Shown here: in pieces, positions 16,089 through 55,719 of the stretch | Layout: every line of letters starts with the position of its first letter | How positions within the stretch are numbered: the stretch's first letter is position 1 | Assembly (NCBI GenBank): GCA_009995545.1 | Contig: JAACPI010000003.1 | Location: forward strand, 5,781 to 69,780 | Reading direction: 5' to 3' | DNA from: a bacterium | GTDB taxonomy: Bacteria; Patescibacteriota; WWE3; 2-01-FULL-39-13; JAACPI01 | DNA length: 64,000 nt | The notes under the pieces: generated by a model | The model's database searches: none | What the model was told of the DNA's origin: nothing | Seen by the model: the letters and a program-made list of their open reading frames with translations, nothing else | Position numbers and translations under genes: made by a program

Positions 16089-16727
16089 TTAAAGCAGCTC
16101 TACCACCTCCTTGGCCCTATCTAAAGTATTACGAACCTTTTGAACGGATTCAGCATATTCCTCAGGTAATCCCGCGGGGTAAAGACGCGTTAACCACAAG
16201 GGACTAATCAGACATAGAGAAAAAGAATCGACGTACATACCACCGGACCGCCTCACACGAGGATTACGACCTGTAATATGGTAGCCGACGCGCTCAAGAG
16301 CCTTTCTGGAGCCAAGATTTTCAATCATAACCTCAGACTGAATAGTCGCACGGTCAAGATAGGTAAGCGCGTACCAAGTGCGTGCCACATGGGCGCGGCT
16401 TGCAACACCTTTTCCCCACCAACTAGGGTCACAGATAATAATCCCAGTGTGACAACTGTTAGAACTATTTATATCGTGAATCCCGGTAGAACCAACGACT
16501 TTACCGTGCCCTTCAGGCTCGATTGCCCAGTAGACATCTTCGTTCTCCTGAGCCTTGTCAAACCACTTCTCCTCCATCTGTTGAGTGAAACCTCGGGACT
16601 GCAGAGTGTACTCATGAACTCTGGGACTGCTAAACATGTCAGCAAAGTAACCCATCTCCTCACGTTTAAAAGGACGAAGATTGATATAGAATCCGTCCCA
16701 ACCAACTTTGAACTTAGGTCCAAACAT
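16089..16727 (-). CDS. GNAT N-acetyltransferase (RimJ/RimL-like)
   Basis: GNAT core GHGKVVGSTGIHDI...GIIICDPSWWGKGVASRA...IQSEVMIENLGSRKALERVGY. Strong SD (AAGGAG) 8 nt before the ATG. Locally ~50% GC against the ~32% background. Confidence 0.7.
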   Translation of the reverse strand: MFGPKFKVGWDGFYINLRPFKREEMGYFADMFSSPRVHEYTLQSRGFTQQMEEKWFDKAQENEDVYWAIEPEGHGKVVGSTGIHDINSSNSCHTGIIICDPSWWGKGVASRAHVARTWYALTYLDRATIQSEVMIENLGSRKALERVGYHITGRNPRVRRSGGMYVDSFSLCLISPLWLTRLYPAGLPEEYAESVQKVRNTLDRAKEVVELL

Positions 16728-16871
16728 GTGATTTCTCCTTTGATAGTGGCTGTAGTTGAGTTGTTAAAGAGCTTCTTTGTTCTTTAGTTGTCTTTGTATT
16801 TCCTTAGCTACAAAGGGTTTAAAGAACCAAAAAAGCCTTCAAATAGAGATTTATTAAGTGAAAATAAGCAC

Positions 16872-16896
16872 AAAAAAAGCCTCCGTTTGGAGGCTT
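16872..16896 (-). terminator. Hairpin (AAGCCTCC-GTTT-GGAGGCTT) followed by a T7 run on the minus strand
   Basis: Seen directly in the sequence. Which transcript it ends is unclear. Confidence 0.35.
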
Positions 16897-17220
16897 ATCC
16901 GGGTGTTTAAAGGGGGGTTAAATCTTAGATAAGCCACAAACTTGCGCAATAACCTGCATAACAGGGTTTAAACCCGCTGTTGCAGAAATATTAAGTTTGC
17001 AGTTCCATCTAAAATAGTTCATATCTAGGATATTATAACTGTTATTTCTACTTAATCAAGTACTATAGGGTGTTTATTGAATTAATAACAAATAACACAT
17101 ATTGTAAAATAACCCTGTCTAATGGTTTATAGTACGATTTAAGTGGAAAACTACGGATTAAAACGTTATAATCTAGCAGGCTAAGCCTAAGTATCCTGAA
17201 TACGGGGGTTAGCTATTTAT

Positions 17221-17298
17221 GGTGGCTGTAGCTCAATTGGTTAGAGCGCCGCTTTGTGGAAGCGGAGGCAGTGGGTTCAAATCCCATCAGCCACCCCA
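17221..17298 (+). tRNA. tRNA-His (anticodon GTG) with encoded G-1 and 3' CCA
   Basis: Hand-folded cloverleaf. Acceptor GTGGCTG/CAGCCAC, with an extra 5' G pairing the discriminator C, which is the His hallmark. D-stem GCTC/GAGC. Anticodon loop TTGTGGA. T-arm GTGGG-TTCAAAT-CCCAT. Confidence 0.85.
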
Positions 17299-17330
17299 CC
17301 TTAAAATCCTTTACCTAAGCCATCTGTAGT
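17274..17330 (+). repeat. att-like repeat copy 1: tRNA-His 3' half plus 32 nt of downstream flank
   Basis: Near-identical copies at 18716-18776 and 19813-19866. Confidence 0.7.
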
Positions 17331-17496
17331 GGTATAAAACACTACTGATAACTACTGCCACTTAGGCTAGTCTTTATTGCAGACAAGCACTTTTGTTCGG
17401 ATATCATCCTACAACAAAAGAGCACAGACATTTTCGCCCTCGAAGAAGGAGTCGCATTTTCACAGACACACAAGTATACAACTCTAGTCATTGAGC

Positions 17497-18648
17497 TTAA
17501 AGATTTTCCTTAATCCATAGATTTAGAGGATCCCTCTGTTTGATATAAGACTCTACAGTGATCGGGATAGGAATATTTGGCTTGAGTACATCTAGGTCTT
17601 GTCCAGGCAATAACTCAAAATACTTATACGAACACTGAACTTCAATTTTAGAGTTTGGCAGGACTATGTCCTTTCTATCACCAAATCTATTAGGCTTTTG
17701 TCCTGCATTTTCTCCAATTAGCACTGCGTTTTTATGTTGTTTCAAAAAAAGCGTATGATGCATGGCAGACGAAAATGTTTCTCTACCGATTGCTACATAC
17801 GTTGGAGTATTATCTGGGAAATTTTCGAAGGAGTCTTCCATAACACTAGTATCACCTCCGCCGTTAAGGCGTAAGTCTACAATAATGCTCTTTGCTTTAG
17901 AGGCTTCGAGAGAAAGAACTTTTTTAAACTTCTTCAGTTCATTCTCAGTGTGTCCTCTGTTGTTACAAGCATTGTACTGAAATACAAGGGTTTCTTCTTC
18001 CATGCGAAGCCTATACGTATTGTTTCCTGTGTAGGTGGGATTTTTAATGTAATCAGATTTCTTCCAAGTTAATGGTTTCAGTACAATTGCATTTTGAAAT
18101 TCTTCCTCAGTTCCTTTGTTAATTTCAAAACTCCCTTCAGACGTCTCTATATTTAATAAGTCTTTCTTGCTCACATCTATATATTTGAGAATATTGTTGG
18201 ATTGTAGATAGATCGAAACATCTCTAAACAGAACCTCTAAGTTCTCTTGTGAAGACAGCTTTGCTATTCTCTTGGTAAGTTCTTCAATCGAGATATCATT
18301 TATGCTTAAAAGTTTCTTTCCAAGAAAAGCTTTTTTGTTTTCTGTGATACCTACGATGTGGAGAATATCTCCTATAAATATGTATTTTATAGGAAATAGG
18401 GACCCTCCTATTCTAGTAACTTTTGTATGGGCGTCTCTCAATAACACTAAAGCTTCTTGAATAACGTACCTCATCTCCTCTTCAGTACAATCAAGAGTTT
18501 TGGACAATTCCTTTTCGAAGTCCTTTTTTTCAACATTTTTATAAGGATCACAATGTATTTGTTCTATCCCAGATACTAAGTATTTAATGTCTTCCTTCTT
18601 TTCCTTAGTAGTTAATTGGGTAGATTTTATGTTTTTGCTCATTTTCAA
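17497..18648 (-). CDS. S41-family (C-terminal processing/tail-specific protease-like) peptidase
   Basis: DLRLNGGGD and GRETFSSAMHH...NAVLIGE resemble the S41 DLRNNGGG and Ser-containing catalytic blocks. Confidence 0.55.
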   Translation of the reverse strand: MKMSKNIKSTQLTTKEKKEDIKYLVSGIEQIHCDPYKNVEKKDFEKELSKTLDCTEEEMRYVIQEALVLLRDAHTKVTRIGGSLFPIKYIFIGDILHIVGITENKKAFLGKKLLSINDISIEELTKRIAKLSSQENLEVLFRDVSIYLQSNNILKYIDVSKKDLLNIETSEGSFEINKGTEEEFQNAIVLKPLTWKKSDYIKNPTYTGNNTYRLRMEEETLVFQYNACNNRGHTENELKKFKKVLSLEASKAKSIIVDLRLNGGGDTSVMEDSFENFPDNTPTYVAIGRETFSSAMHHTLFLKQHKNAVLIGENAGQKPNRFGDRKDIVLPNSKIEVQCSYKYFELLPGQDLDVLKPNIPIPITVESYIKQRDPLNLWIKENL

Positions 18649-18715
18649 GTTATATCATAATAGTATCTATATTATACAATTACTCTTATCAAAATCTCTA
18701 TTTCACCAACTATTT

Positions 18716-18776
18716 GGTTCAAACCAAAAATCTATCAGCTACCCCACCTTAAAACCCTTTACCTAAGCCATTTGTA
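18716..18776 (+). repeat. att-like repeat copy 2 (degenerate tRNA-His 3' end plus flank)
   Basis: GGTTCAAACCAAAAATCTATCAGCTACCCCACCTTAAAACCCTTTACCTAAGCCATTTGTAG versus the tRNA's GGGTTCAAATCCCATCAGCCACCCCACCTTAAAATCCTTTACCTAAGCCATCTGTAG. Confidence 0.7.
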
Positions 18777-18914
18777 GGCGTCATAACATACCCCTATGAG
18801 ACTTACTTGAACTCCTAGACTTCCGAACCTAAAAATATTTTAAAATGAATATTACTGAAGCTTATTGGTTGTTATTAATTTTGTTATTTGAAATAAACTT
18901 GTTAAAATTTTCTT

Positions 18915-19760
18915 ATGGATATGAACTTACTTGAGGAAAAATTTAAAGGACTTCCAGATCATAAAAAAGTTGCTTTTAAAGCATTAAAATATTTAAGTGA
19001 GTCTCCAGATGTAATAGGATTGTACTTATCTGGATCTTTTGCAAAGGGTCTACCAGACATATATTCTGACTTAGATATAAATATACTAGTTGATCCCACA
19101 AAGCGAGAAAAGATAGTTAAAGAGCACCAAGAAAACCTAATTAAAAATGTAGGTAAGATAGCCACTTTATTTCCCGCAACTCACTTAGGTGACCCTAACC
19201 AAATAATCGTTTTTTATGAAGAAGGCGTACCAATTCACGTAGATTACCAATATAGAGTACTGGAAGATCTTTTACCCACTTCAAAAAATAAAGATGTATT
19301 AGTCTTATTTGACCCTGGAGGTGTCTTAACTGAGTGGAAAAGTAAGTGCTTAATTGCTAAACCTGAGACCCTACCGATTAACGATAAAATGCAATATTTT
19401 GAAGATAGATTTTGGGGTTGGTGCGCCTACACGGATGCAAAAATTGAAAGAGGTGAACTGTGGGAATCTAGAGACGCTCTTGAATACTTAAGATCTAATG
19501 TACTAGTTTCTTTGGCTTATTTTAAGCTCGGATTACCAAATGAAGGAAATAGGAGGCTAGAGTCTAAATTCCCTACCGATATACTTAATTCACTAACCAG
19601 TACTGTTCCTTTGGGCTTGGATAAAAATTCATATAAAGATGCTTTACTAAGTACGATTGAAGGCTACACAACTCTTTTCAGGGATGTCTCTAGCTTAAAC
19701 ACCACTAACAAAACCACCCTAGCGGATCGCGAATATTTTATCCGCTCGATCAAAAGCTAA
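18915..19760 (+). CDS. Nucleotidyltransferase-fold protein (ANT/aminoglycoside-lincosamide adenylyltransferase-like architecture)
   Basis: GS...D.D NTase motif (LSGSFAKGLPDIYSDLDINILVD) plus a C-terminal helical domain. 281 aa. Confidence 0.5.
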   Translation: MDMNLLEEKFKGLPDHKKVAFKALKYLSESPDVIGLYLSGSFAKGLPDIYSDLDINILVDPTKREKIVKEHQENLIKNVGKIATLFPATHLGDPNQIIVFYEEGVPIHVDYQYRVLEDLLPTSKNKDVLVLFDPGGVLTEWKSKCLIAKPETLPINDKMQYFEDRFWGWCAYTDAKIERGELWESRDALEYLRSNVLVSLAYFKLGLPNEGNRRLESKFPTDILNSLTSTVPLGLDKNSYKDALLSTIEGYTTLFRDVSSLNTTNKTTLADREYFIRSIKS

Positions 19761-19770
19761 TACACAGATT

Positions 19771-19866
19771 AGACAAACAAATACTCCTTCACAAACACTT
19801 TCGTTCGAGTATCGTTCAATTGCCGACCCCCACCTTTAAAACCCTTTACCTAAGCCATTTATACCG
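19771..19866 (+). repeat. Composite repeat R1/copy 3: AAACAAACAAATACTCCTTCACAAACACTTT block, pseudo-tRNA 3' half, then the tRNA downstream flank
   Basis: Left half matches 22901-22945. Right half matches 17296-17330 and 18741-18776. About 50 nt downstream of it also resemble the sequence after copy 2. Confidence 0.65.
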
Positions 19867-19933
19867 ATTGTAAAACACCCTGATGGGACGTTACTCGAAC
19901 TCATAGGATTGGAAATCAAAAATCACCCAGGTT

Positions 19934-21247
19934 CTAAGGGGTAAGTCTTTTAACTCCCCTATAGAGATAGGTCACTTCTCTCACATTTGGAATATCAAAT
20001 ATTTTCATTAACATTCTTGTAGGACCAAACCCAATTCCACCATGAGGAGGACAACCATACTTAAAAAAGTTTAAATAATGTTGTAAGGGCTCCAAGTGGA
20101 GACCTTTCTCTGTAGCTTGTTTTATTAAAACGTCATAACGGTGTTCTCGTTGCGCACCCGTTGTAATTTCAATACCGTTCCAAAGTAAGTCAAAACTTTT
20201 AGTTAATGTTGGATCCCCATCAACGCGCATATGATAAAAAGGTCTGACATCAATTGGGTATTCTGTAACAAACACAAACTCGTGCCCCTTTTCTTTCAAA
20301 ATATACTCAGATAATCTTCTTTCTTCTTCTGGACTTAAATCTCCGTCTTTTTCACTTGGAACATTAAGTTTCTTTAGTATCTTCTTAGCCTCAGACATAC
20401 TTACCTTAGGAAAAGGTGTGGTAGGAATTACTAATTTTCTACCATAAGATTTTTCAATCTCAGCCCCAAACTTTTGCTTAAGCTTCTCTATAACAAACCG
20501 TAGCATACGTTCCTCTTGCTCCATAACATCGTAGTGAGACTTTATAAATGAAATTTCAAAGTCGTAGCCTGTAAACTCAGTATCGTGCCTAGAAGTAAAG
20601 GAGGGATTAGCCCTAAACACCGGACCCACCTCAAATACCTTCTCAAAACCAGAGGCCATAGCCATTTGCTTATAAAACTGTGGGGATTGAGCCAAATAGG
20701 CAACTCTATCAAAGTATTTAACCTCGAATAGTTCAGCACCGGATTCACTAGGTGTGCTCATAAACTTAGGGGAGTGTATTTCCATAAACCCATCGTTTAC
20801 GAAAAACTCTCTCATGTATTGCTCCATCCAAGTCCACACTTTAAAAATAAGTGCTTTTTCAGGTTTCCTAAGGTCAATCCATCGCCAGTCTAATCTCGTG
20901 GGTTGCTCTGTTTCTGCATTACTTTTATCTATTATGGGAATTGGCAATTTTGGATCTGCTTTAGAAAGCACGGTTATGCTATCAATCTGAAGTTCCACCC
21001 CATTAGGGGCCTGTCTCTCCTCTTTTATAACCCCTATTACTTCTATTACAGACTCGTTAGCCAAGTCAGAAATTATTTTAAATGCCTCAGTCTTTTCTTC
21101 ACCGACTACTAATTGGGCAATACCAGTAATATCCCTTAGTAAAACGAATTTTATTCTCCCTTGGTCACGAATAGTGTGCACCCACCCCATCATAGTTACT
21201 TCCTCAGAGATTTTAGATTTTATATCTTGAACGTATACCCTTTTCAT
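19934..21247 (-). CDS. aspS: Aspartyl-tRNA synthetase, archaeal/eukaryotic type (no GAD insertion, 437 aa)
   Basis: N-terminal OB anticodon-binding domain. Class II motifs (FRANPSF, GGIGFGPTRM). The length is typical of the archaeal-type enzyme. Confidence 0.85.
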   Translation of the reverse strand: MKRVYVQDIKSKISEEVTMMGWVHTIRDQGRIKFVLLRDITGIAQLVVGEEKTEAFKIISDLANESVIEVIGVIKEERQAPNGVELQIDSITVLSKADPKLPIPIIDKSNAETEQPTRLDWRWIDLRKPEKALIFKVWTWMEQYMREFFVNDGFMEIHSPKFMSTPSESGAELFEVKYFDRVAYLAQSPQFYKQMAMASGFEKVFEVGPVFRANPSFTSRHDTEFTGYDFEISFIKSHYDVMEQEERMLRFVIEKLKQKFGAEIEKSYGRKLVIPTTPFPKVSMSEAKKILKKLNVPSEKDGDLSPEEERRLSEYILKEKGHEFVFVTEYPIDVRPFYHMRVDGDPTLTKSFDLLWNGIEITTGAQREHRYDVLIKQATEKGLHLEPLQHYLNFFKYGCPPHGGIGFGPTRMLMKIFDIPNVREVTYLYRGVKRLTP

Positions 21248-21600
21248 AAATCGTTTTCTTAATTACGTAGGGGTAAGTTTAAAAATACCCAAACGGAACA
21301 AAAAGCTAAAAAAGCTAAATTGATAATCCGTAAGGGCGTAGTAGAGTACTAACAGTACCTAATGTTACGCGGTGCCACCTCACTTTTTTCTAATGTTCTC
21401 ATTAGAAACTCTCACCTCAAACTAATAAGGTTTAACGCTGTAATGGGCGTTCCCATGGGGTTCTAATTTCGTAAAGATTTCTTCCCCAAGCTCATCGGTG
21501 TTTGCCGAATCATAGCTATATACGGTAATTATATACCTTTTGTCAAATTACTTCAAATAACCTCTCAAAGGATAGTAAACAAAAGAATGGAGCGAGAGAA
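21248..21600 (-). promoter_or_regulatory. Candidate T-box riboswitch leader of aspS
   Basis: The minus strand at 21383-21365 reads GTGAGGTGGCACCGCGTAA. This matches the T-box core AGGGUGGNACCGCG with N=C, which would pair a G73 discriminator. It lies ~120 nt upstream of the aspS ATG. A further 450-nt untranslated leader with raised GC follows. Confidence 0.4.
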
Positions 21601-21689
21601 CAGAACTGAAAAATACTGTTAAGACACAAATTAAGTAAAAATCATGTTAGCGTACTGTACAAAAAAGATACACCTTAACAAAAGCTTTA

Positions 21690-21760
21690 GTTCGAACAAC
21701 GTCCCATTGCCGACCCCATCATCCTATAGTATTTACAAATAACTCCTATTTTGATATAAT
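21690..21760 (+). promoter_or_regulatory. Repeat R2: pseudo-tRNA-His 3' half (GTTCGAACAACGTCCCATTGCCGACCCCA), CCTATAGTA, then promoter TTTACA(21732-21737)-N17-TATAAT(21755-21760)
   Basis: Near-consensus sigma70-type spacing. Orientation fits the downstream + genes at 21816 and 22068. Confidence 0.6.
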
Positions 21761-21815
21761 TACCCTAATATAGCAATCCGGCTATAAATTGGATTAAGAG
21801 TTTCAGGAGGGAAAT

Positions 21816-21998
21816 ATGCCGAATAGAGGTTGGTCGAAGAAGCGCTTGTTAAGTGCAGGGGCATTTCTAGCCACTTTGCTGATCTTCGCGATCCAGGCTG
21901 TAGTGGCAAAAAATGGAAGCCCCGATGACGTCGTGCTGGTCTCGGCCTTAATGGTGATCGTAACAGCCTATCTGGTGATTTTTGTACCAGGGAAATAA
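21816..21998 (+). CDS. Small membrane protein (60 aa, two TM helices)
   Basis: Strong SD (GGAGGGAAAT-ATG). Local GC ~50%. Downstream of the R2 promoter. Confidence 0.4.
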   Translation: MPNRGWSKKRLLSAGAFLATLLIFAIQAVVAKNGSPDDVVLVSALMVIVTAYLVIFVPGK

Positions 21999-22067
21999 GG
22001 CCAAGGATAGGGAAAAGTGAAGGGTACCTTACGGAACCTATAGGCAAAGCCTGTAGCCCTTCGATGG

Positions 22068-22862
22068 TTGGATAATCTAGAAAGGAGGTTTATCCTTCAA
22101 AAAAGATTGTTCAACCATTTCCGTGTAGTAAAAATCTTTTTAAAAATGCTTAAAAATTACACAAAACCATACTTACAGGAAATTGCCCATAATGTAATTG
22201 ACGAAGAAAAAGAATCCCGTACCGGTTACCAGGATATAGAAGTACAAGATGGTGAGCTATTTGACCCTTCATATGCTGAGTGGGAAATAGCAGAAAGTTG
22301 GGAGAGGCATTTGAAAATTTCTTTATCCACAAGGTTAGAAGAGGACAATATTGAAAATATACAAAAAACAGGAAAATTCCTGGCCACTTTCTTTGTAACA
22401 TTAGAAGAATTAAGAAAAAAATACAATTTTGAGAAAGCTATACCAGTAGGTGTTGTCTATAAATATACGGAAAAACGCAACCAAAAATTTATTATATTAG
22501 CAGACGAGGAATCTGGGACAATACACATATCATTTTTTGACTTAAACAGGCTACTAACAAAACCTCCCACCAAAGTACAAGCAGAAGGAACAACTTACAG
22601 TGGTACTTTAGAAGACTTTGCAAAGTTGTGCGCCGCAGAAGAGTTTTACCATATTGCTCACCCAGAATACGAGCAAAATATACTAGGTAATGTAAGCGCT
22701 GGTGTAAATTTGGTAGACTATGATGCACAAGAGGCTGAGTTTAACGCACTCCTTTTTCAACTCCACAATGCAATAGAATGGGATATGCCAGAACATACAG
22801 TAGAAAATATACGACAAAGGATTAATAGAGCTAAAAAAATTAGAGACAATCGGATTAAATAA
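22068..22862 (+). CDS. Hypothetical protein, paralog of 27172-27903. The ORF-track start is TTG, so the true start is uncertain.
   Basis: Shares FLATFFVTLEELRKKYNF...ILADEESGTIHISFF and VDYDAQEAEF...LLFQLHNAIEW blocks with the 27172 ORF. Confidence 0.45.
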   Translation: MDNLERRFILQKRLFNHFRVVKIFLKMLKNYTKPYLQEIAHNVIDEEKESRTGYQDIEVQDGELFDPSYAEWEIAESWERHLKISLSTRLEEDNIENIQKTGKFLATFFVTLEELRKKYNFEKAIPVGVVYKYTEKRNQKFIILADEESGTIHISFFDLNRLLTKPPTKVQAEGTTYSGTLEDFAKLCAAEEFYHIAHPEYEQNILGNVSAGVNLVDYDAQEAEFNALLFQLHNAIEWDMPEHTVENIRQRINRAKKIRDNRIK

Positions 22863-22885
22863 CCTCTTTTACAGATTTATGGGAC

Positions 22886-23004
22886 ATTAAATCCCCCACT
22901 CTAAACAAACAAATACTCCTTCACAAACACTTTGGTTCTAGTATCGTCCCATTGCCGACCCCATTATCCCATAGTATTTACAGGTATACCCTTTTATCGT
23001 ATAA
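22886..23004 (+). promoter_or_regulatory. Repeat R3, the full composite: ATTAAATCCCCCACT, AAACAAACAAATACTCCTTCACAAACACTTT, pseudo-tRNA 3' half, then TTTACA(22976-22981)-N17-TATAAT(22999-23004)
   Basis: Same architecture as R2, R4 and R5. Left parts recur at 19771-19812 and 29731-29765. Confidence 0.6.
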
Positions 23005-23060
23005 TTATTGTGTAACTGAATTTCGAGTTACATAGTCGTTTTAGCACGAGGAGAGAAGAA

Positions 23061-23435
23061 ATGAAAAGGTTAAACCTGATGTTTTTTTTCCTAGTCTTGG
23101 CAAGCCTCCTATTACAAGGCTGTGCCAGCTTCGGCAATACGAAGGTGAAAGATGCAGTCGTTAGGGACTGGATATTTTCAGTCGAAACACGAGTAAACGG
23201 GGTGACTACCGTTTGGCTCAGGAACGATGACACCGGGGTCTACTGCTTCACTAATGATATCGCTACTGCGAAGCAGCTAGAAGACCTCATGAAGTCGGAT
23301 CGAATGGTCACATTCCGGTACGGTGATGTAAAGTTTTTCAATAACAATCCGTGCTCTGGAGCAGAAGTAAGTGTCGATGGGAGTGGTTTCCACACCTTTG
23401 TTGTCACCCAAATCGTAGGGGACTTAAAGGAGTAA
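23061..23435 (+). CDS. Small lipoprotein (lipobox LLLQGC)
   Basis: MKRLNLMFFFLVLASLLLQGCASF. Higher GC than the host. SD GGAGAG. Confidence 0.5.
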   Translation: MKRLNLMFFFLVLASLLLQGCASFGNTKVKDAVVRDWIFSVETRVNGVTTVWLRNDDTGVYCFTNDIATAKQLEDLMKSDRMVTFRYGDVKFFNNNPCSGAEVSVDGSGFHTFVVTQIVGDLKE

Positions 23436-23565
23436 CTTAGATGAGCGGTAAGGACCGGCGGAAGATCCAACATGGATCGCCACGGAATATCTGACAAAAG
23501 TCAGACGCACATATAACATCCTTACAGTAGTACAATTTTTAGAACACTACCCTCTCCCTAACGAA

Positions 23566-24180
23566 TTAAAAGTTCGGTATTTTAATAATAATTCCCTCTT
23601 CAAGTAAAGAATCAGAATCTATATCCAGTAAATTTATTTTACTTAGTTTTTCTGCGTAGCTGGTTGAACCAAAAAATAACGTTGAAAGATTATTTAGGTT
23701 TTTAGGAGTATTTTTATTATTTACTTTATATGTAAAAACTTCAGAGTGCTGTTTTATGTCTTTCTCAAAAATTGGGTTAAAAACCATATCTTTTAACGAG
23801 GACTTGGAGATATCTCTAACTTCAAAATGTAAGTGAGGCTCTAAACAAGCCTCTCCTGTATCACCAGAGAACCCTATAACATCTCCAGTTTTAACTATTT
23901 GAGCGAGATTAACTGAAAAGACGCTTAGATGGGCATAAAGAGCTACTATATTACCATTTCTAATTGAAACAGTATTACCCATACCTTTATGAAATTCTTT
24001 TCTTACGACAATACCCCTGAAAGAGTTTAGTATTTTAGTTCCAACTGGAATATCAAAATCTAACCCAGGATGTTTATTACTGAAAATTTCGTAAAACTTC
24101 CCCTTATCGGAGTCCCCAGTAAAGTCTTTGCCAAAAGTGACAGATATTTTACCCTGTTCCAGAAGTTTTTGTAACTTCAT
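23566..24180 (-). CDS. M23-family metallopeptidase (lysostaphin/LytM-like)
   Basis: HxxxD and HxH blocks (GLDFDIP..., GDTGEACLEPHLHFEV). Confidence 0.7.
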   Translation of the reverse strand: MKLQKLLEQGKISVTFGKDFTGDSDKGKFYEIFSNKHPGLDFDIPVGTKILNSFRGIVVRKEFHKGMGNTVSIRNGNIVALYAHLSVFSVNLAQIVKTGDVIGFSGDTGEACLEPHLHFEVRDISKSSLKDMVFNPIFEKDIKQHSEVFTYKVNNKNTPKNLNNLSTLFFGSTSYAEKLSKINLLDIDSDSLLEEGIIIKIPNF

Positions 24181-24216
24181 ATGCTTATTTTAACACCAGA
24201 GGAGTGTAACAGGCTA

Positions 24217-24296
24217 AACAAACATTTTCGTTCGAATATCACTCCATTAACGTCCCACCCTATAGTATTTACACCGAACCTCATTTGACATATAAT
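24217..24296 (+). promoter_or_regulatory. Repeat R4: TTCGTTCGAATATC...CGTCCCACCCTATAGTA, then TTTACA(24268-24273)-N17-TATAAT(24291-24296)
   Basis: Same promoter module. Faces the + gene at 24387. Confidence 0.55.
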
Positions 24297-24386
24297 ATAT
24301 GTATTTAGTGGCAATTCGATGCACTAATCAGAACATTCAAAACCTGTTACTTAATAATTGATTTTCTAGCATATAGGAGAAGAGAG

Positions 24387-25619
24387 ATGTCAGATCGAAG
24401 ACTTGGCGCATGGGACTGTGAGTATTGTAGTCGCACCAAAATCTGGGGAAATGTATATACATGTCCAGGATGTGGTAACCCAAGGAGCAAGGGAGTGAGG
24501 TTCTACCTACCCTCTGATGCCCCTTTGGTGACACCGGAGATTGCAGAACAATTGGGGTCCGGAGATCCTAACTGGTATTGCGAACATTGTAATTCCGGAA
24601 ACACAGACACCAGAGATATTTGCTGGAACTGTGGAGCTCCGAAGGGATCTTCTCCCGTACATGAAACAAAAAATTTCATGGAAGGACAGACCCCCCGAAG
24701 TACTGCACAGGCTCGAGCAGCAGATCCAGATGGACGGTCTTGGGTGGCAAAAAGTGATAGAAACGGCCGAACCACTACAACTTCACCTTCAAGAGAACCT
24801 AATAAGCCTGAGCAATATAGTTGGGCTTCTCTAGTGAGTTCTCCGAAGACGTTCACTAATCAGGCTAAATCCATAATAAGCTCGGGGAAAAATCCAGCTT
24901 ACTTAGGGGCAGCTCTAGGGGTTTTGGGAGCAATTCTGATAGCATTTCTAAGCTACAACCTGTTCTTTAAACCCCACGAGGAAACTGCTATAGTTAGCTC
25001 GTTCCAGTGGGAACAGAGCGTGGTTTTACAGCAGTTTTCCACCGTTCGCGAAACAGCATGGACAAGTACACCCTCAGGGGCGTACAACATCCAATCTGAC
25101 TACAGGGATACTGGCCGCGATCTAAAAGTCCACGACGGATGGGAGACAGTCAGTTACTCGGACACTTGTTACCGTAGCGAAAGCTACACCGACACGTGCA
25201 CCAGGTCTGTCTACAACTCCCGGACGTGTACAGGGAATCGCGACAATGGAGACGGATCCTTCAGCAGTTATACCTATGACTGCGGGAGCAGCGGTACGGA
25301 GACATACTCGTGTAGTAAAACGAGAAGTGTCCCATATAGCTGCACCAAGACCCGTCAAGAAGAGTTGTACCATTATGAGGACATATGGGACAACTGGCAC
25401 GAGTTCGACATTGATAAGTGGACCCATGTGACAACGTATCCCACACGGGGTAATAATCACAGACCCCACTTTCAAGAGGTAAATCTCCAAAACCCCTACT
25501 TGGGTGGGAACCCGATACTTGGTCAGCAGAAGCTGATTCAGATCCCGGGAAGCTATTCCATAACCTTTGCGTGCGAAAACAAAAAATCACTCGGCTCGTT
25601 CTTAAACCAAAATTTTTAA
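24387..25619 (+). CDS. Membrane protein with two N-terminal cytoplasmic CxxC...CxxC zinc ribbons, one TM helix, and a Ser/Thr/Tyr/Cys-rich extracytoplasmic domain
   Basis: CEYCSRTKIWGNVYTCPGCGNP and YCEHCNSGNTDTRDICWNCGAP. TM helix AYLGAALGVLGAILIAFLSY. GC ~48%. Several antisense ORFs are artefacts of that GC. Confidence 0.5.
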   Translation: MSDRRLGAWDCEYCSRTKIWGNVYTCPGCGNPRSKGVRFYLPSDAPLVTPEIAEQLGSGDPNWYCEHCNSGNTDTRDICWNCGAPKGSSPVHETKNFMEGQTPRSTAQARAADPDGRSWVAKSDRNGRTTTTSPSREPNKPEQYSWASLVSSPKTFTNQAKSIISSGKNPAYLGAALGVLGAILIAFLSYNLFFKPHEETAIVSSFQWEQSVVLQQFSTVRETAWTSTPSGAYNIQSDYRDTGRDLKVHDGWETVSYSDTCYRSESYTDTCTRSVYNSRTCTGNRDNGDGSFSSYTYDCGSSGTETYSCSKTRSVPYSCTKTRQEELYHYEDIWDNWHEFDIDKWTHVTTYPTRGNNHRPHFQEVNLQNPYLGGNPILGQQKLIQIPGSYSITFACENKKSLGSFLNQNF

Positions 25620-25683
25620 ACAAACAAACTCTAACAAATACTTTTAAATAGTAAATTTCTGAAGTATTTTAAATACATGAACC

Positions 25684-25998
25684 TTGGTGATTTTATTTCC
25701 TTTGCAAGTCTGGGGGGGGGGCGAAATTGGTTTTGATGGTTTAACGGTATCAACAAATTTTGGAGAAATAATGTTATACTCCGGGTATGCCCACAGTGAT
25801 AAATGCAACAGGGTTTTTTGTAATTTCGCAGACACAAACGAGCAGATAGAGTGTGTCTACAACACTAGCGGGGAATTACTAATTTTTAAAAAAGACGACA
25901 AAGTATTATTTCAATTAGAGACAGGTATAGAAACTGATCCGGCAATCGAACTCAGAAGTAGCAATAATTGGTCTCTCGGGGCTTATTGGACCAGGTAA
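25684..25998 (+). CDS. Possible small protein (104 aa) whose 5' end contains the G10 tract. The start may instead be the internal Met, after the tract.
   Basis: ORF has protein-like composition. No homology recognised. Confidence 0.25.
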   Translation: MVILFPLQVWGGGEIGFDGLTVSTNFGEIMLYSGYAHSDKCNRVFCNFADTNEQIECVYNTSGELLIFKKDDKVLFQLETGIETDPAIELRSSNNWSLGAYWTR

Positions 25999-26006
25999 TT
26001 ATAGGC

Positions 26007-27065
26007 CTATCTGGCATATATTGAATTAAACTCTTGAATCAGAGAAATATTTGAAAGGTAGTTTTTATACATGTCCACGTAGGTATCTTCATAAATAAGA
26101 TCGCGGTTTCCATAGCCAAATGTTTGATCAACTTTGTATTTCCCGTCTCCCATAGAATCGTACTGATACTCATATGCAGGGGTGCCAAAACTTCCTAGGT
26201 CAACCCATCTTTTTCTAATTCCTAGTACGGTAACTTCGCTGTCATTGTCAATGCCACCTACCCAGGTACGTTTATCAGAATCAGTTAAAAATAAATAAGA
26301 ATATTTACTATTAACTGATTTAAAAACTCTTGCTGTAGTTTTTCCATAAATGGCGGCTTCAAACTGCCATGTTAATGTTAAATTTTTAAAGTTGGGTTTA
26401 TCACTTTGCTCTATATAAATATCTTCGGGTGGAAGTAATTCTTCTTTTTTAGACGAGTACATCTTGCCTATTATTTTTAAGGGCTCCTCAACTATAAGTT
26501 CTGTATATGTTTTATCTGTGGCACTTTCCATAGCGGTACCATAGAACACTTCAATTCCTGAGATTTTATCTTCAATTTTAAGGGTGGTTTTAATTTGCGT
26601 TGAAATAAAATACTGAAGCTCTAGAGGAAGCATTATACTCCACTCACTATAACCTTTGTCATTCCACTTAGGCTGTTCATTACCTTCCTCATCCACTCTA
26701 TATTTATAAGCTCTAAGCAAACGATACAAACCTTGAGATTTGCTTTGGAAAAAAGAAGATACTAAATACCTTCCCTTATAATCTTTAATGTAAGCAATTA
26801 ATCTTGGAACTTCGTTGTTTGCAATTTTAAATTTGTCGGATAAATAAATCTTTCTATCCCCTACTGTTACCTGGTATTTAGGAAAAAGTTTGTGATTAAT
26901 TAAATCTTGTGCAGTAAGATCTTTACCATTAAAGGGGCGGGCGTGAAAATAAGACTTTTCTAAAGCATCTTTAAACATTACTACATTATATAACAGGAAA
27001 TAATAAATACCTTTAGTAGACATCTGATTAGAGTCCCCCCCCCCTTCTACTAAGACAGACCTCAT
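26007..27065 (-). CDS. Hypothetical protein with a G9 tract (on the minus strand) in codons 8-10 (GGG). Alternative start MSTKG lies downstream of the tract.
   Basis: 352-aa ORF. C9 at 27036-27044 on the plus strand. Confidence 0.4.
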   Translation of the reverse strand: MRSVLVEGGGDSNQMSTKGIYYFLLYNVVMFKDALEKSYFHARPFNGKDLTAQDLINHKLFPKYQVTVGDRKIYLSDKFKIANNEVPRLIAYIKDYKGRYLVSSFFQSKSQGLYRLLRAYKYRVDEEGNEQPKWNDKGYSEWSIMLPLELQYFISTQIKTTLKIEDKISGIEVFYGTAMESATDKTYTELIVEEPLKIIGKMYSSKKEELLPPEDIYIEQSDKPNFKNLTLTWQFEAAIYGKTTARVFKSVNSKYSYLFLTDSDKRTWVGGIDNDSEVTVLGIRKRWVDLGSFGTPAYEYQYDSMGDGKYKVDQTFGYGNRDLIYEDTYVDMYKNYLSNISLIQEFNSIYAR

Positions 27066-27070
27066 AGACC

Positions 27071-27115
27071 CTATAACCCTATAGTATTTACAAGTAACCT
27101 ATTCTAGGGTATATT
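27071..27115 (+). promoter_or_regulatory. Repeat R5: CCCTATAACCCTATAGTA, then TTTACA(27087-27092)-N17-TATATT(27110-27115)
   Basis: Same promoter module. Faces 27172. Confidence 0.55.
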
Positions 27116-27171
27116 TATTGTAACTAAAATCCGAATTATAAATCCTTGGTATCAATAAACTTTTAAAAATA

Positions 27172-27903
27172 ATGAATCCGCAAATACCAAAAGAAGAACC
27201 TACCGTTTCCGAGGCACAAATTCCAGATAGCGGCTTTGAGATGGAAATAACAGATAGGGATCTTATCAACGTGTCAGACCCTAGCTGGAAAGACACCCAA
27301 ATGTGGGTGAATCAACTTAGTATGTCTATGGAATCTCGCAATTTGGAATACTCAGAAGACGAAATTCTAGTTGCGGCAAGATACTTAGCTACATTTTCGC
27401 AGACACTAGAGGAACTAAGGGGGAGGTTTAACTATCCAAATGTAATACCTATAAACATTGTTTATAGGTACCAGGAGAAAAACAACCGAGCCTTTATGAT
27501 CCTTGCGGATTCAAAATCAAGAACAGTACATATCTCCATCATTGCTTTGATGAAGTTTTTTAGAGGATTGTCTAGTATAGAAGAAGATTTTTTTTACTAC
27601 AAACTGGGAGACACAATAGCATTTAATGGCACTTTAATGAATTTTGCGAGGCTTAATGCAGTCGAAGAATTCGACCACGTGACGAATTCTGCAGGCAGAT
27701 CAAATAGCCTTTGGTTGGTTAATGAGGATAACCCAATAGTCGAATATGATGCGCAAGATGTTGAGCACAGCGGGCTGTTATTACAGCTACAGTTAGCTGT
27801 TGAGTGGAAAATGCCCTGGACAACTATAAACCCACTGGGCGACAGGTTACACAACGCTATAGAGTTAAGAAGAAGTAGAAGGAGTAGTACTGTTAAAAAA
27901 TAA
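27172..27903 (+). CDS. Hypothetical protein, paralog of 22068-22862
   Basis: Aligned blocks YLATFSQTLEELRGRFNY...ILADSKSRTVHISII and VEYDAQDVEH...LLLQLQLAVEW. Confidence 0.45.
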   Translation: MNPQIPKEEPTVSEAQIPDSGFEMEITDRDLINVSDPSWKDTQMWVNQLSMSMESRNLEYSEDEILVAARYLATFSQTLEELRGRFNYPNVIPINIVYRYQEKNNRAFMILADSKSRTVHISIIALMKFFRGLSSIEEDFFYYKLGDTIAFNGTLMNFARLNAVEEFDHVTNSAGRSNSLWLVNEDNPIVEYDAQDVEHSGLLLQLQLAVEWKMPWTTINPLGDRLHNAIELRRSRRSSTVKK

Positions 27904-38775: not shown

Positions 38776-38784
38776 TATAGGTTG

Positions 38785-55595: not shown

Positions 55596-55719
55596 AAAGT
55601 AAGATTACCTAAGTACTAACTGGTTGGCAATAATTCGTAAATTATAGGTATTTTACAATCGTCTTATTTCGGGTATAATTTGTGTAGTACCAAATTTAAC
55701 CCAAAAGTTACATTACACA

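Follow-up and report, generated by a model that had tools for sequence, protein, structure and literature searches.

Integrons carry a tyrosine recombinase, IntI, with the attI site and the promoter Pc beside the cassette array; their attC sites contain the boxes RYYYAAC and GTTRRRY, and their cassettes are generally promoterless. Self-promoted cassettes occur in chromosomal integrons, as an exception. The bacteria of the Candidate Phyla Radiation (CPR), or Patescibacteria, have tiny genomes and are largely uncultured, and little appears to have been described of how they acquire and express foreign genes. Here we describe four copies of a near-consensus promoter (R2 to R5), each lying in a larger junction module with which a gene cassette begins on its left; the cassettes form an array starting from a tRNA-His gene. 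The array is located in a 64-kb stretch of DNA from a WWE3 bacterium (mean GC 34.7%), the whole of which is referred to below as the window.

Several other described systems resemble parts of this locus. The tycheposons of Prochlorococcus are tRNA-targeting islands in which partial copies of tRNA 3' ends mark successive integrations, the older elements being pushed inwards and decaying (bioRxiv 10.1101/2020.12.28.424599). Promoter-early stem-loop (PeSL) motifs are repeated between orphan genes in the hyperplastic regions of T4-like phages, where cassettes have been proposed to be exchanged via mini-circles, through recombination of one motif with another (PMC2839356, PMC4122927). Putative mobile promoters are highly similar promoter regions found before non-homologous genes in one genome (PMC3575422), and the classical UP element is a region of A/T tracts to which the RNA polymerase alpha subunit binds with its C-terminal domain (PMC12641261). 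For the window, we think it somewhat better than an even chance that the promoter part of the module, designated C, is a functional, strong promoter of a Patescibacteria type, standing at the left end of self-expressed cassettes that would have accumulated beside tRNA-His by recombination at a site derived from the tRNA 3' end.

The pattern CCYATAGTA-TTTACA-N17-TATAAT/TATATT occurs four times, always on the plus strand (at 21723, 22968, 24259 and 27078), and nowhere else in the 64 kb. TTTACA-N17-TATAAT itself is found exactly three times in the window, again on the plus strand only (21732, 22977 and 24268), against a shuffle expectation of 0.08 and with no shuffle ever giving three; in the fourth copy (27087) the -10 reads TATATT. 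The 15-mer CCTATAGTATTTACA, with at most one mismatch allowed, is present four times where shuffles predict 0.03, and none of 100 shuffles reaches four. These counts confirm the sequence-only reading of four near-consensus copies, each with an exact 17-nt spacer. Promoter prediction, which that reading had suggested as a check, was run and returns nine near-consensus sigma-70-type sites in the 64 kb, four of them being the R2 to R5 promoters, with hexamer scores of 11/12, 11/12, 11/12 and 10/12 and a spacer of 17 bp throughout. Within the 17-29 kb region the three TATAAT copies are the top three promoter scores and the fourth ties at 10/12. Each is followed by a gene on the same strand, as had been claimed, at a distance from -10 to first start codon of 55, 55, 90 and 56 nt in R2, R3, R4 and R5 respectively, and not the 57-95 nt first given. 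Ribosome-binding sites of the AGGAG/GGAGG type are seen at R2 to R4, and none is obvious at R5. The housekeeping genes of the window do not use this type of promoter with its upstream 9-mer.

The four promoters are parts of one module of about 130 bp, repeated at the left ends of successive cassettes. The module comprises, in order, a C-rich, G-poor and unstructured block Z; a block B that resembles the 3' end of tRNA-His; a junction GAC/CCC, the stroke marking the joint; the 9-mer CCYATAGTA; the -35 hexamer TTTACA, which abuts it directly; the 17-nt spacer; the -10 hexamer; and a stem-loop. A hidden Markov model (HMM) built from the four copies, searched with nhmmer, finds four full modules over about 130 nt with E values of 1e-23 to 1e-34 and a fifth, partial match at R1 (19770-19830), in which Z-B is present and the promoter absent. 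The same model detects no further copies in the window or in the 19 kb of adjoining contig. A pseudo-tRNA fragment had been said to precede all four promoters; this is so for R2 to R4, which have the full Z-B (nhmmer E<=6e-12), whereas only about 11-20 nt of it are left in R5. As to whether the module is specific to this locus, the full module is found only in the array, within the window and the adjoining 19 kb, whereas the CCYATAGTA-TTTACA core recurs across Patescibacteria with unrelated flanks. Coordinates of these and the other features are collected in the table.

Table. Features of the tRNA-His locus, the cassette array and its surroundings (window coordinates; aa, amino acids; ORF, open reading frame; GC3, GC fraction at third codon positions).
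Feature	Position	Strand	Remarks
R2 module	21659..21787	+	Z-B 21663-21717; 9-mer 21723-21731; -35 21732-21737; -10 21755-21760; stem-loop 21769-21786; E=1.7e-31
R3 module	22902..23034	+	Z-B 22903-22962; 9-mer 22968-22976 (CCCATAGTA); -35 22977-22982; -10 23000-23005; stem-loop 23012-23031; E=1.7e-34
R4 module	24196..24327	+	Z-B 24198-24256; 9-mer 24259-24267; -35 24268-24273; -10 24291-24296; stem-loop 24305-24327; E=1.7e-29
R5 module	27016..27142	+	B remnant only (GACCCTATAA); 9-mer 27078-27086; -35 27087-27092; -10 27110-27115 (TATATT); weak stem-loop 27120-27139; E=2.1e-23
R2 cargo, 60-aa membrane ORF	21816-21998	+	GC 49%, GC3 0.56; followed by 238-aa ORF 22146-22862
R3 cargo, 124-aa lipoprotein ORF	23061-23435	+	GC 46%, GC3 0.55
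R4 cargo, 410-aa double zinc-ribbon membrane protein	24387-25619	+	GC 48%, GC3 0.49
R5 cargo, 243-aa ORF	27172-27903	+	GC 40%, GC3 0.40 (intermediate)
tRNA-His (GTG), intact, left array end	17222..17298	+	ARAGORN; Rfam tRNA 69.8 bits; 3' end stands where the repeats have block B
Primary site: tRNA-His 3' end, A0 (CCACCTTAAAATCCTTTACCTAAGCCATCTGTAG), degenerate B' arm	17272..17371	+	B-A-B' HMM E=2.3e-19; local alignment to other A-B' copies z 14-17
att2, second B-A-B' site	18714..18816	+	E=2.2e-22; B closely copies the tRNA-His 3' end, apart from 7 inserted nt
R1, mosaic junction, no promoter C	19771..19909	+	Z-B of R2-R4 type (90% identical to R3) plus A-B' of tRNA-site type (z 22)
Inverted B copy	19883..19901	-	With B2 (21689-21707): 19 nt, 89% complementary; brackets AspRS gene, leader and promoter
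Unit 1		-	S41 peptidase
Unit 2		+	Nucleotidyltransferase
Unit 3		-	AspRS with own T-box leader and promoter, between inverted B copies
Unit 4 (R2)			60-aa and 238-aa ORFs
Unit 5 (R3)			124-aa lipoprotein; M23 peptidase on opposite strand
Unit 6 (R4)			410-aa zinc-ribbon membrane protein; 104-aa ORF; 352-aa ORF on opposite strand
Unit 7 (R5)			243-aa ORF, possibly with adjacent 296-aa ORF
Z-like remnant	25620..25650	+	Directly past 410-aa ORF stop; possible decayed cassette end (weak)
Fifth 9-mer promoter	17032..17075 (site 17069)	-	CCCTATAGTA-c-TTGATT-N16-TATAAT; beside tRNA-His, pointing away; in no cassette repeat

Conservation within the module is concentrated in the promoter elements. Among the four copies the -35 does not vary (mean pairwise identity 1.00) and the 9-mer and the -10 vary little (0.94 and 0.92), compared with 0.45 in the spacer and 0.24-0.48 in the flanks; in two further copies, from the metagenomic contig L047 described below, the hexamers and the 9-mer are likewise conserved above the neighbouring sequence. 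This profile points to purifying selection on a working promoter in old paralogues, because recent copying would have kept the spacer equally well. Since the core also recurs with unrelated flanks, its perfect conservation would reflect promoter function and not recent copying. The stem-loop, of 5-6 bp, begins 4-8 nt past the -10, which places it at the predicted transcript start or close to it. Three different stem sequences are used, and 5-6 pairs are held in all six copies from the window and L047.

Other interpretations of the module sequence were considered and rejected. Z-B as a terminator or structured RNA was discarded on fold energies equal to those of shuffles; no terminator-like sites are seen at the junctions, and none precedes the promoter. 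MAFFT aligned block A, the flank of the tRNA gene, with promoter C, but local alignment against shuffles gives z of about 0 and the apparent homology is an alignment artefact. A minus-strand promoter for a T7-like single-subunit polymerase (TACTATAGG compared with CACTATAGGG) matches over 8-9 nt, in an orientation that suits two of the four copies; we know of no such polymerase in this setting. A divergent minus-strand sigma-70 promoter with TACTAT as its -10 has no conserved -35 at 16-18 nt, and the M23 gene has a TGnTAAAAT box of its own.

The first ORF behind three of the four promoters is compositionally foreign. Neighbouring genes have a GC3 of 0.24-0.33, and the high-GC blocks (21800-22100, 23050-23550 and 24380-25600) start at the start codon, the module itself being of native composition. 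The proposal that the promoters drive acquired genes of higher GC agrees in composition with these three; the R5 cargo is only intermediate. The cargo ORFs are orphan or CPR-restricted, and have no Pfam, PHROGs or PADLOC assignment; a phage or defence origin was rejected, PHROGs and PADLOC giving no matches. While the modules are homologous, the first ORFs behind R2, R3 and R4 are mutually unrelated. The 243-aa ORF of R5 is a paralogue of the 238-aa ORF of R2 (34% identity, E=3e-45); no relatives of the 243-aa protein were detected beyond this paralogue, the homologue search returning only its own fragment. Homologues of the 410-aa protein share at most 56% identity with it and occur in WS6 and Collierbacteria, on contigs of 40-47% GC, consistent with transfer from higher-GC CPR donors. 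No common module is found in the regions upstream of these homologues, one of which has CCTATAACA-TTGATT-N17-TATTCT.

The 410-aa protein has two zinc ribbons of the RanBP2 type, a membrane segment and a Cys-rich C-terminal part. Its family comprises 94 detected proteins, the closest in CPR (WS6 and Collierbacteria), with weaker matches in metagenome-assembled genomes (MAGs) of Firmicutes, Cyanobacteria and Chloroflexi.

The array extends from 17.3 to at least 28 kb and contains at least seven units, all joined at GAC/CCC, the position of the tRNA 3' end. Three sites, the tRNA-His 3' end, att2 and R1, align with the form B-A-B' (HMM E values of 2e-19 to 2e-24), in which A is the stretch of about 35 nt that follows the tRNA 3' end and B' is a short inverted arm; diverged B blocks are located at 19801, 21688, 22933 and 24220. 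An intact tRNA that bounds the island on one side, together with direct repeats of its 3' part, is the arrangement that characterises tRNA-targeting islands and is present here, and the Infernal tRNA model gives no score for the fragments alone. att2 divides an S41-peptidase cassette (17497-18648, minus strand) from a nucleotidyltransferase cassette (18915-19760, plus strand), both identified with Pfam. In the window the tRNA site, att2 and R1 have B-A-B' and lack C, whereas R2 to R4 have Z-B-C and lack A-B'. R1 is a mosaic of the two site types, as recombination between them would produce. The R1 arms, GTTCGAGTATCGTTCAAT and ATGGGACGTTACTCGAAC, are 62 nt apart and make up an inverted repeat that is imperfect: 16 of 18 positions pair if G-T is counted and 83% are strictly complementary. 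RNAalifold predicts no pairs for the five B-A-B' copies, because two of these lack one arm; the arms were hence counted by hand.

Unit 3 of the array contains the ORF at 19934-21247 on the minus strand, which encodes a non-discriminating AspRS whose best named relative is a Nomurabacteria protein with 77% identity. The segment lies between inverted copies of B and may have been inverted, or be invertible. The gene is preceded by a T-box-like leader at 21329-21522 (minus strand) that covers the full model length with E=4.8e-10 and scores 55 bits, below the Rfam gathering score of 93, and by a promoter, TTGAAG-N17-TATAAT, at 21556-21528 (minus strand). The Rfam scan for known RNA families returned only the tRNA and this sub-threshold T-box. 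Further to the right, tract lengths vary among assemblies that are otherwise at least 99.9% identical, with 10 or 12 residues in a poly-G tract and 8, 9 or 10 in a poly-C tract (25713-25722 and 27036-27045). The poly-C tract is in the 5' end of the 352-aa ORF (minus strand) and precedes the promoter block of R5 by 33 nt; the differences could reflect phase variation or noise in the assemblies.

A homologous array of two cassettes is present on the metagenomic contig L047 (Ga0210057_1003426). Its left flank ends in GTCACCCA, which is joined to CCC-A-B'-linker-C-hairpin; two ORFs and Z'-B follow, then the joint to a second A-B'-linker-C-hairpin, one ORF and Z'-B, and finally the joint to an unrelated flank with a Fic-like gene. 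The Z'-B, B-A-B' and C-hairpin elements are each homologous to those of the window (nhmmer E values of 1e-13 to 1e-25; local-alignment z up to 10-11), and a full B-A-B' site and promoter C occur here together in one junction. Complementarity between the arms ATTGGTTCGTATAGTG and CACTATTCGAACCAAT is 94%. B and B' arms match at 11/12 within each genome and at 8-9/12 between genomes; since the arms agree within genomes and differ between them, the inverted repeat has been maintained while its sequence changed. As in the window, cargo GC is above that of the flanks.

Next to this array on L047 (1353-11246 and 14300-14800) are genes for a DnaG-type primase zinc ribbon, a helix-turn-helix protein and a DnaB-like helicase, as well as all parts of a type I restriction-modification system and a Fic-like ORF. 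Such surroundings resemble a mobile element or an island.

The promoter core is much more widespread than the module. The pattern CCYATAGTATTTACA-N17-TATAWT (38 nt) was scanned against one genome per species in GTDB, a metagenome collection and IMG/VR. The GTDB scan yields 24 stretches, at least 14 of which are labelled Saccharibacteria, WWE3, WS6 or Patescibacteria, and the metagenome collection adds 23 similar ones. Neither flanks nor spacers are related among the sites, which stand before a variety of genes. IMG/VR viral contigs contain no match to the 38-nt pattern and none to the A-B' or C-hairpin scans, and a 16-mer from B gives three chance matches in coding DNA. Promoters found in the fetched loci independently of the pattern include CCCATAGTG-TTTGCC, CCTATAGTA-TTGACT, CCTATAGTA-TTGACG and CCTATAGTA-TTTGCA, followed by N16-17 and TATAAT, and YATAG lies within 9 nt before the -35 in 8 of 20 near-consensus promoters (orthologues and search seeds removed), in loci that were chosen for the motif. 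Since chance alone would give a number of matches that cannot be neglected among the genuine promoters of all bacteria, the lineage-wide argument rests on taxonomic concentration and on recurrence within genomes; in Patescibacteria MAG188 (JBMORU010000001.1), for example, 8 kb contain four promoters of this type, and a small orphan ORF follows each of them. We conclude that the CCYATAGTA-TTTACA core is, as judged from these loci, a predicted promoter type that recurs lineage-wide in Patescibacteria. No description of the 9-bp block CCYATAGTR, or of CPR promoter motifs, was found in the literature searched; for one member of the group, Nanosynbacter lyticus TM7x, 188 mapped start sites are given in PMC12641261.

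In MAG188, orphan ORFs of 67-135 aa each stand behind CCYATAGTR-TT(T/G)RCN-N16/17-TATAAT (L022 413-7550 and L015 1188-5510). In this CPR genome, which is unrelated, the runs may form a set of self-promoted genes analogous to that of the window; homology to Z-B or A-B' was not detected in them. The same promoter type is found 23 nt and 85 nt downstream of tRNA genes in two other genomes, after tRNA-Ile (L024 4256-4389) and after a cluster ending in tRNA-Trp (L036 1838-2034). In the window, the lexA promoter at 55638-55680 (plus strand), TATAGGTAT-TTTACA-N16-TATAAT, is a near relative. The word AACCTATAG(TG) abuts the -10 rather than the -35 at 38781 (minus strand) and in a promoter conserved in several Saccharibacteria (L021/L033/L041/L045/L048/L049); given its occurrence at both hexamers, the block may be a factor-binding site usable at either. 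The fifth 9-mer promoter, at 17069, is followed after about 150 nt by a hairpin and T-run, well before the GNAT gene at 16727. The segment concerned (16868-17075, minus strand) could be a small RNA or a regulatory leader, and matches no Rfam family.

Whether the promoters are active, what the hairpin does, and how the cassettes work and move are matters that we infer from these patterns, and the following scheme can be proposed. The RNA polymerase holoenzyme would recognise the two hexamers together with the 9-bp upstream block, which many Patescibacteria would use either as an additional element for recognition or as a site where a factor binds. A cassette would consist, from left to right, of promoter, stem-loop, ribosome-binding site, one to three genes, Z and B; it would be expressed from its own promoter, independent of context, and the 5' hairpin would probably stabilise the mRNA. 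The array would have grown by repeated recombination at the tRNA-His-like site, either because a recombinase with its gene elsewhere integrated circular cassettes site-specifically, or by homologous exchange between modules, as has been suggested for the PeSL motifs. The fullest version of this scheme we offer only as a doubtful possibility. It is that of an integron-like gene-capture system of the CPR, in which self-promoted, hairpin-bearing cassettes recombine at a GAC/CCC site derived from the tRNA-His 3' end, with co-varying inverted arms and the recombinase elsewhere, and which exposes a phylum-wide 9-bp block, CCYATAGTR, abutting the -35.

A number of observations weigh against self-expressed cassettes gathered by recombination. 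Among the ORFs between 14.6 and 34.8 kb, and the other large ORFs of the window that were scanned, Pfam identifies no integrase or recombinase. The only recombinase seen nearby, a 558-aa large serine recombinase (PF00239; L069 18535-20211), is on the same contig, 6.6-8.3 kb to the left of window base 1 and about 25 kb from the tRNA-His array, and nothing ties it to the array. At least ten groundwater metagenome assemblies, at least 99.9% identical to the window, are colinear with it and show no cassette gain or loss. The groundwater samples that are the source of this DNA are JGI 3300007987, 3300008093 and 3300025035/25126/25158, and ENA ERZ27293359. A presumably essential gene, for AspRS, sits within the array; its nearest relatives (77-78% identity) have neither synteny nor the module, and are therefore uninformative on the presence or absence of cassettes. 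R2 to R5 lack the A-B' that is present in R1 and L047, there is no junction of the tRNA with C, and with this order of junction types simple serial integration does not fit without extra deletions or inversions. The fold energies of the hairpins are no better than those of shuffles, the full module family is known from two contigs only, the window and L047, and the loci of the lineage-wide test had been preselected for carrying the motif.

Some of these points favour another history, in which a gene and its promoter were duplicated in situ by ordinary recombination and the promoters later reused before acquired genes, the tRNA-like block being an old scar. The absence of a recombinase from the island and of polymorphism from the population would then be expected, as would the 34% identity of the ORFs behind R2 and R5; in R2 the paralogue is separated from the promoter by the high-GC 60-aa ORF, which looks like a later insertion. 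Such a history does not account, however, for the unrelated cargo of R3 and R4, for the single precise joint GAC/CCC shared by all copies and L047, for the mosaic at R1, for a homologous array with clean left and right ends on L047, or for inverted arms that co-vary between genomes, and we regard duplication alone as rather unlikely. The sequence-only reading had spoken of a mobile or duplicated cassette. Duplication is supported by homology that reaches beyond the hexamers, from Z-B through the 5' untranslated region, whereas mobility is not, given the missing island recombinase and the colinear assemblies; a duplicated promoter module before foreign-looking cargo appears supported in substance.

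A different explanation is that the likeness of the four promoters is convergent, each being the standard strong promoter of the lineage, arisen independently. The 15-mer plus -10 does occur at unrelated promoters across Patescibacteria, and the fifth 9-mer promoter lies outside the repeats. Convergence would not, however, extend homology about 60 nt upstream of the promoter, into Z-B, and about 30 nt downstream, nor make the spacers 45% identical; nor would it crowd all four copies into 5.4 kb and leave the remaining 58.6 kb and the adjoining 19 kb free of them, with the housekeeping genes of the window lacking the motif. It is accordingly improbable. We give similarly little credence to CCYATAGTA being primarily the operator of a conserved Patescibacteria transcription factor, with the four copies co-regulated and the cassette context secondary. 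The block is discrete, conserved like the hexamers and contains the palindrome CTATAG, and it abuts the -35 in many promoters and the -10 in others, including those at 38781 (minus strand) and in Saccharibacteria; on the other side, there is no second half-site at a fixed distance. An operator would in any case be compatible with self-promoted cassettes, and is not an exclusive alternative. A remnant of a prophage or other conventional mobile element with repeated early promoters is very unlikely. Orphan cargo, and the primase, helicase and type I restriction-modification genes that adjoin the L047 array, would suit it, but the cargo has no PHROGs matches, the motif patterns are absent from IMG/VR, and cellular housekeeping genes flank the array on both sides: UvrA/B/C, LexA, HisRS, a class A penicillin-binding protein and similar proteins mark the window as cellular DNA of a low-GC CPR bacterium that resembles Parcubacteria/Paceibacteria.

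If self-promoted cassettes do accumulate at a site derived from tRNA-His, they would provide a concrete model of gene capture in the CPR, and of plug-and-play expression of foreign genes in minimal genomes. The compact strong promoter with its 5' stabiliser would be usable in genetic tools for Patescibacteria. A block CCYATAGTR at -44 to -36 could improve the prediction of promoters and operons across the radiation, and would hint at an unusual contact by sigma, alpha or another factor. Even if the cassettes are immobile, the locus would be a clear natural case of promoter reuse before horizontally acquired genes.

Comparison with integrons shows a similar overall plan. Both have tandem cassettes of one to three genes, mostly in one orientation, with cargo that is mostly orphan and foreign in composition, and both have a precise joint inside a repeated imperfect palindrome, here B-A-B' with arms of 16-18 nt placed 62-72 nt apart. 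The arms of B-A-B' are 83-94% complementary and co-vary between genomes, but they do not match RYYYAAC/GTTRRRY, and R2 to R5 lack A-B'. In contrast to integrons, the array has no adjacent IntI or any other recombinase, a tRNA gene with its 3' end stands in place of attI as the primary site, and four cassettes in the window and two on L047 begin with a near-consensus promoter instead of depending on a platform Pc.

With tycheposons the locus shares an intact tRNA at one end, copies of the tRNA 3' end through a variable island, and a streamlined genome. Tycheposons are, however, several kb long and carry a tyrosine recombinase and replication genes, whereas the units here are of 1-3 kb, have no recombinase and share a conserved junction promoter; neither excision nor polymorphism is seen among the at least ten assemblies. 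The PeSL motifs are similar in being a composite of promoter and stem-loop repeated between orphan genes, but they belong to phages and have a terminator stem-loop before the promoter. Here the genome is that of a cellular CPR bacterium, the promoter comes first and the stem-loop after it, where the mRNA has its 5' end, and a tRNA 3' fragment goes with the motif. Putative mobile promoters are matched by the presence of homologous modules before the unrelated first ORFs of R2, R3 and R4; that concept is descriptive, whereas in this locus the promoter has a fixed cassette position in a defined junction with the features of a recombination site. At the level of the promoter itself, the hexamers, the optimal 17-bp spacing and an extra conserved block upstream of the -35 recall a sigma-70 promoter with an UP element. 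In contrast to the A/T tracts of the classical element, CCYATAGTR is a discrete 9-mer of mixed composition, and this 9-bp block abutting the -35 is possibly a new ingredient.

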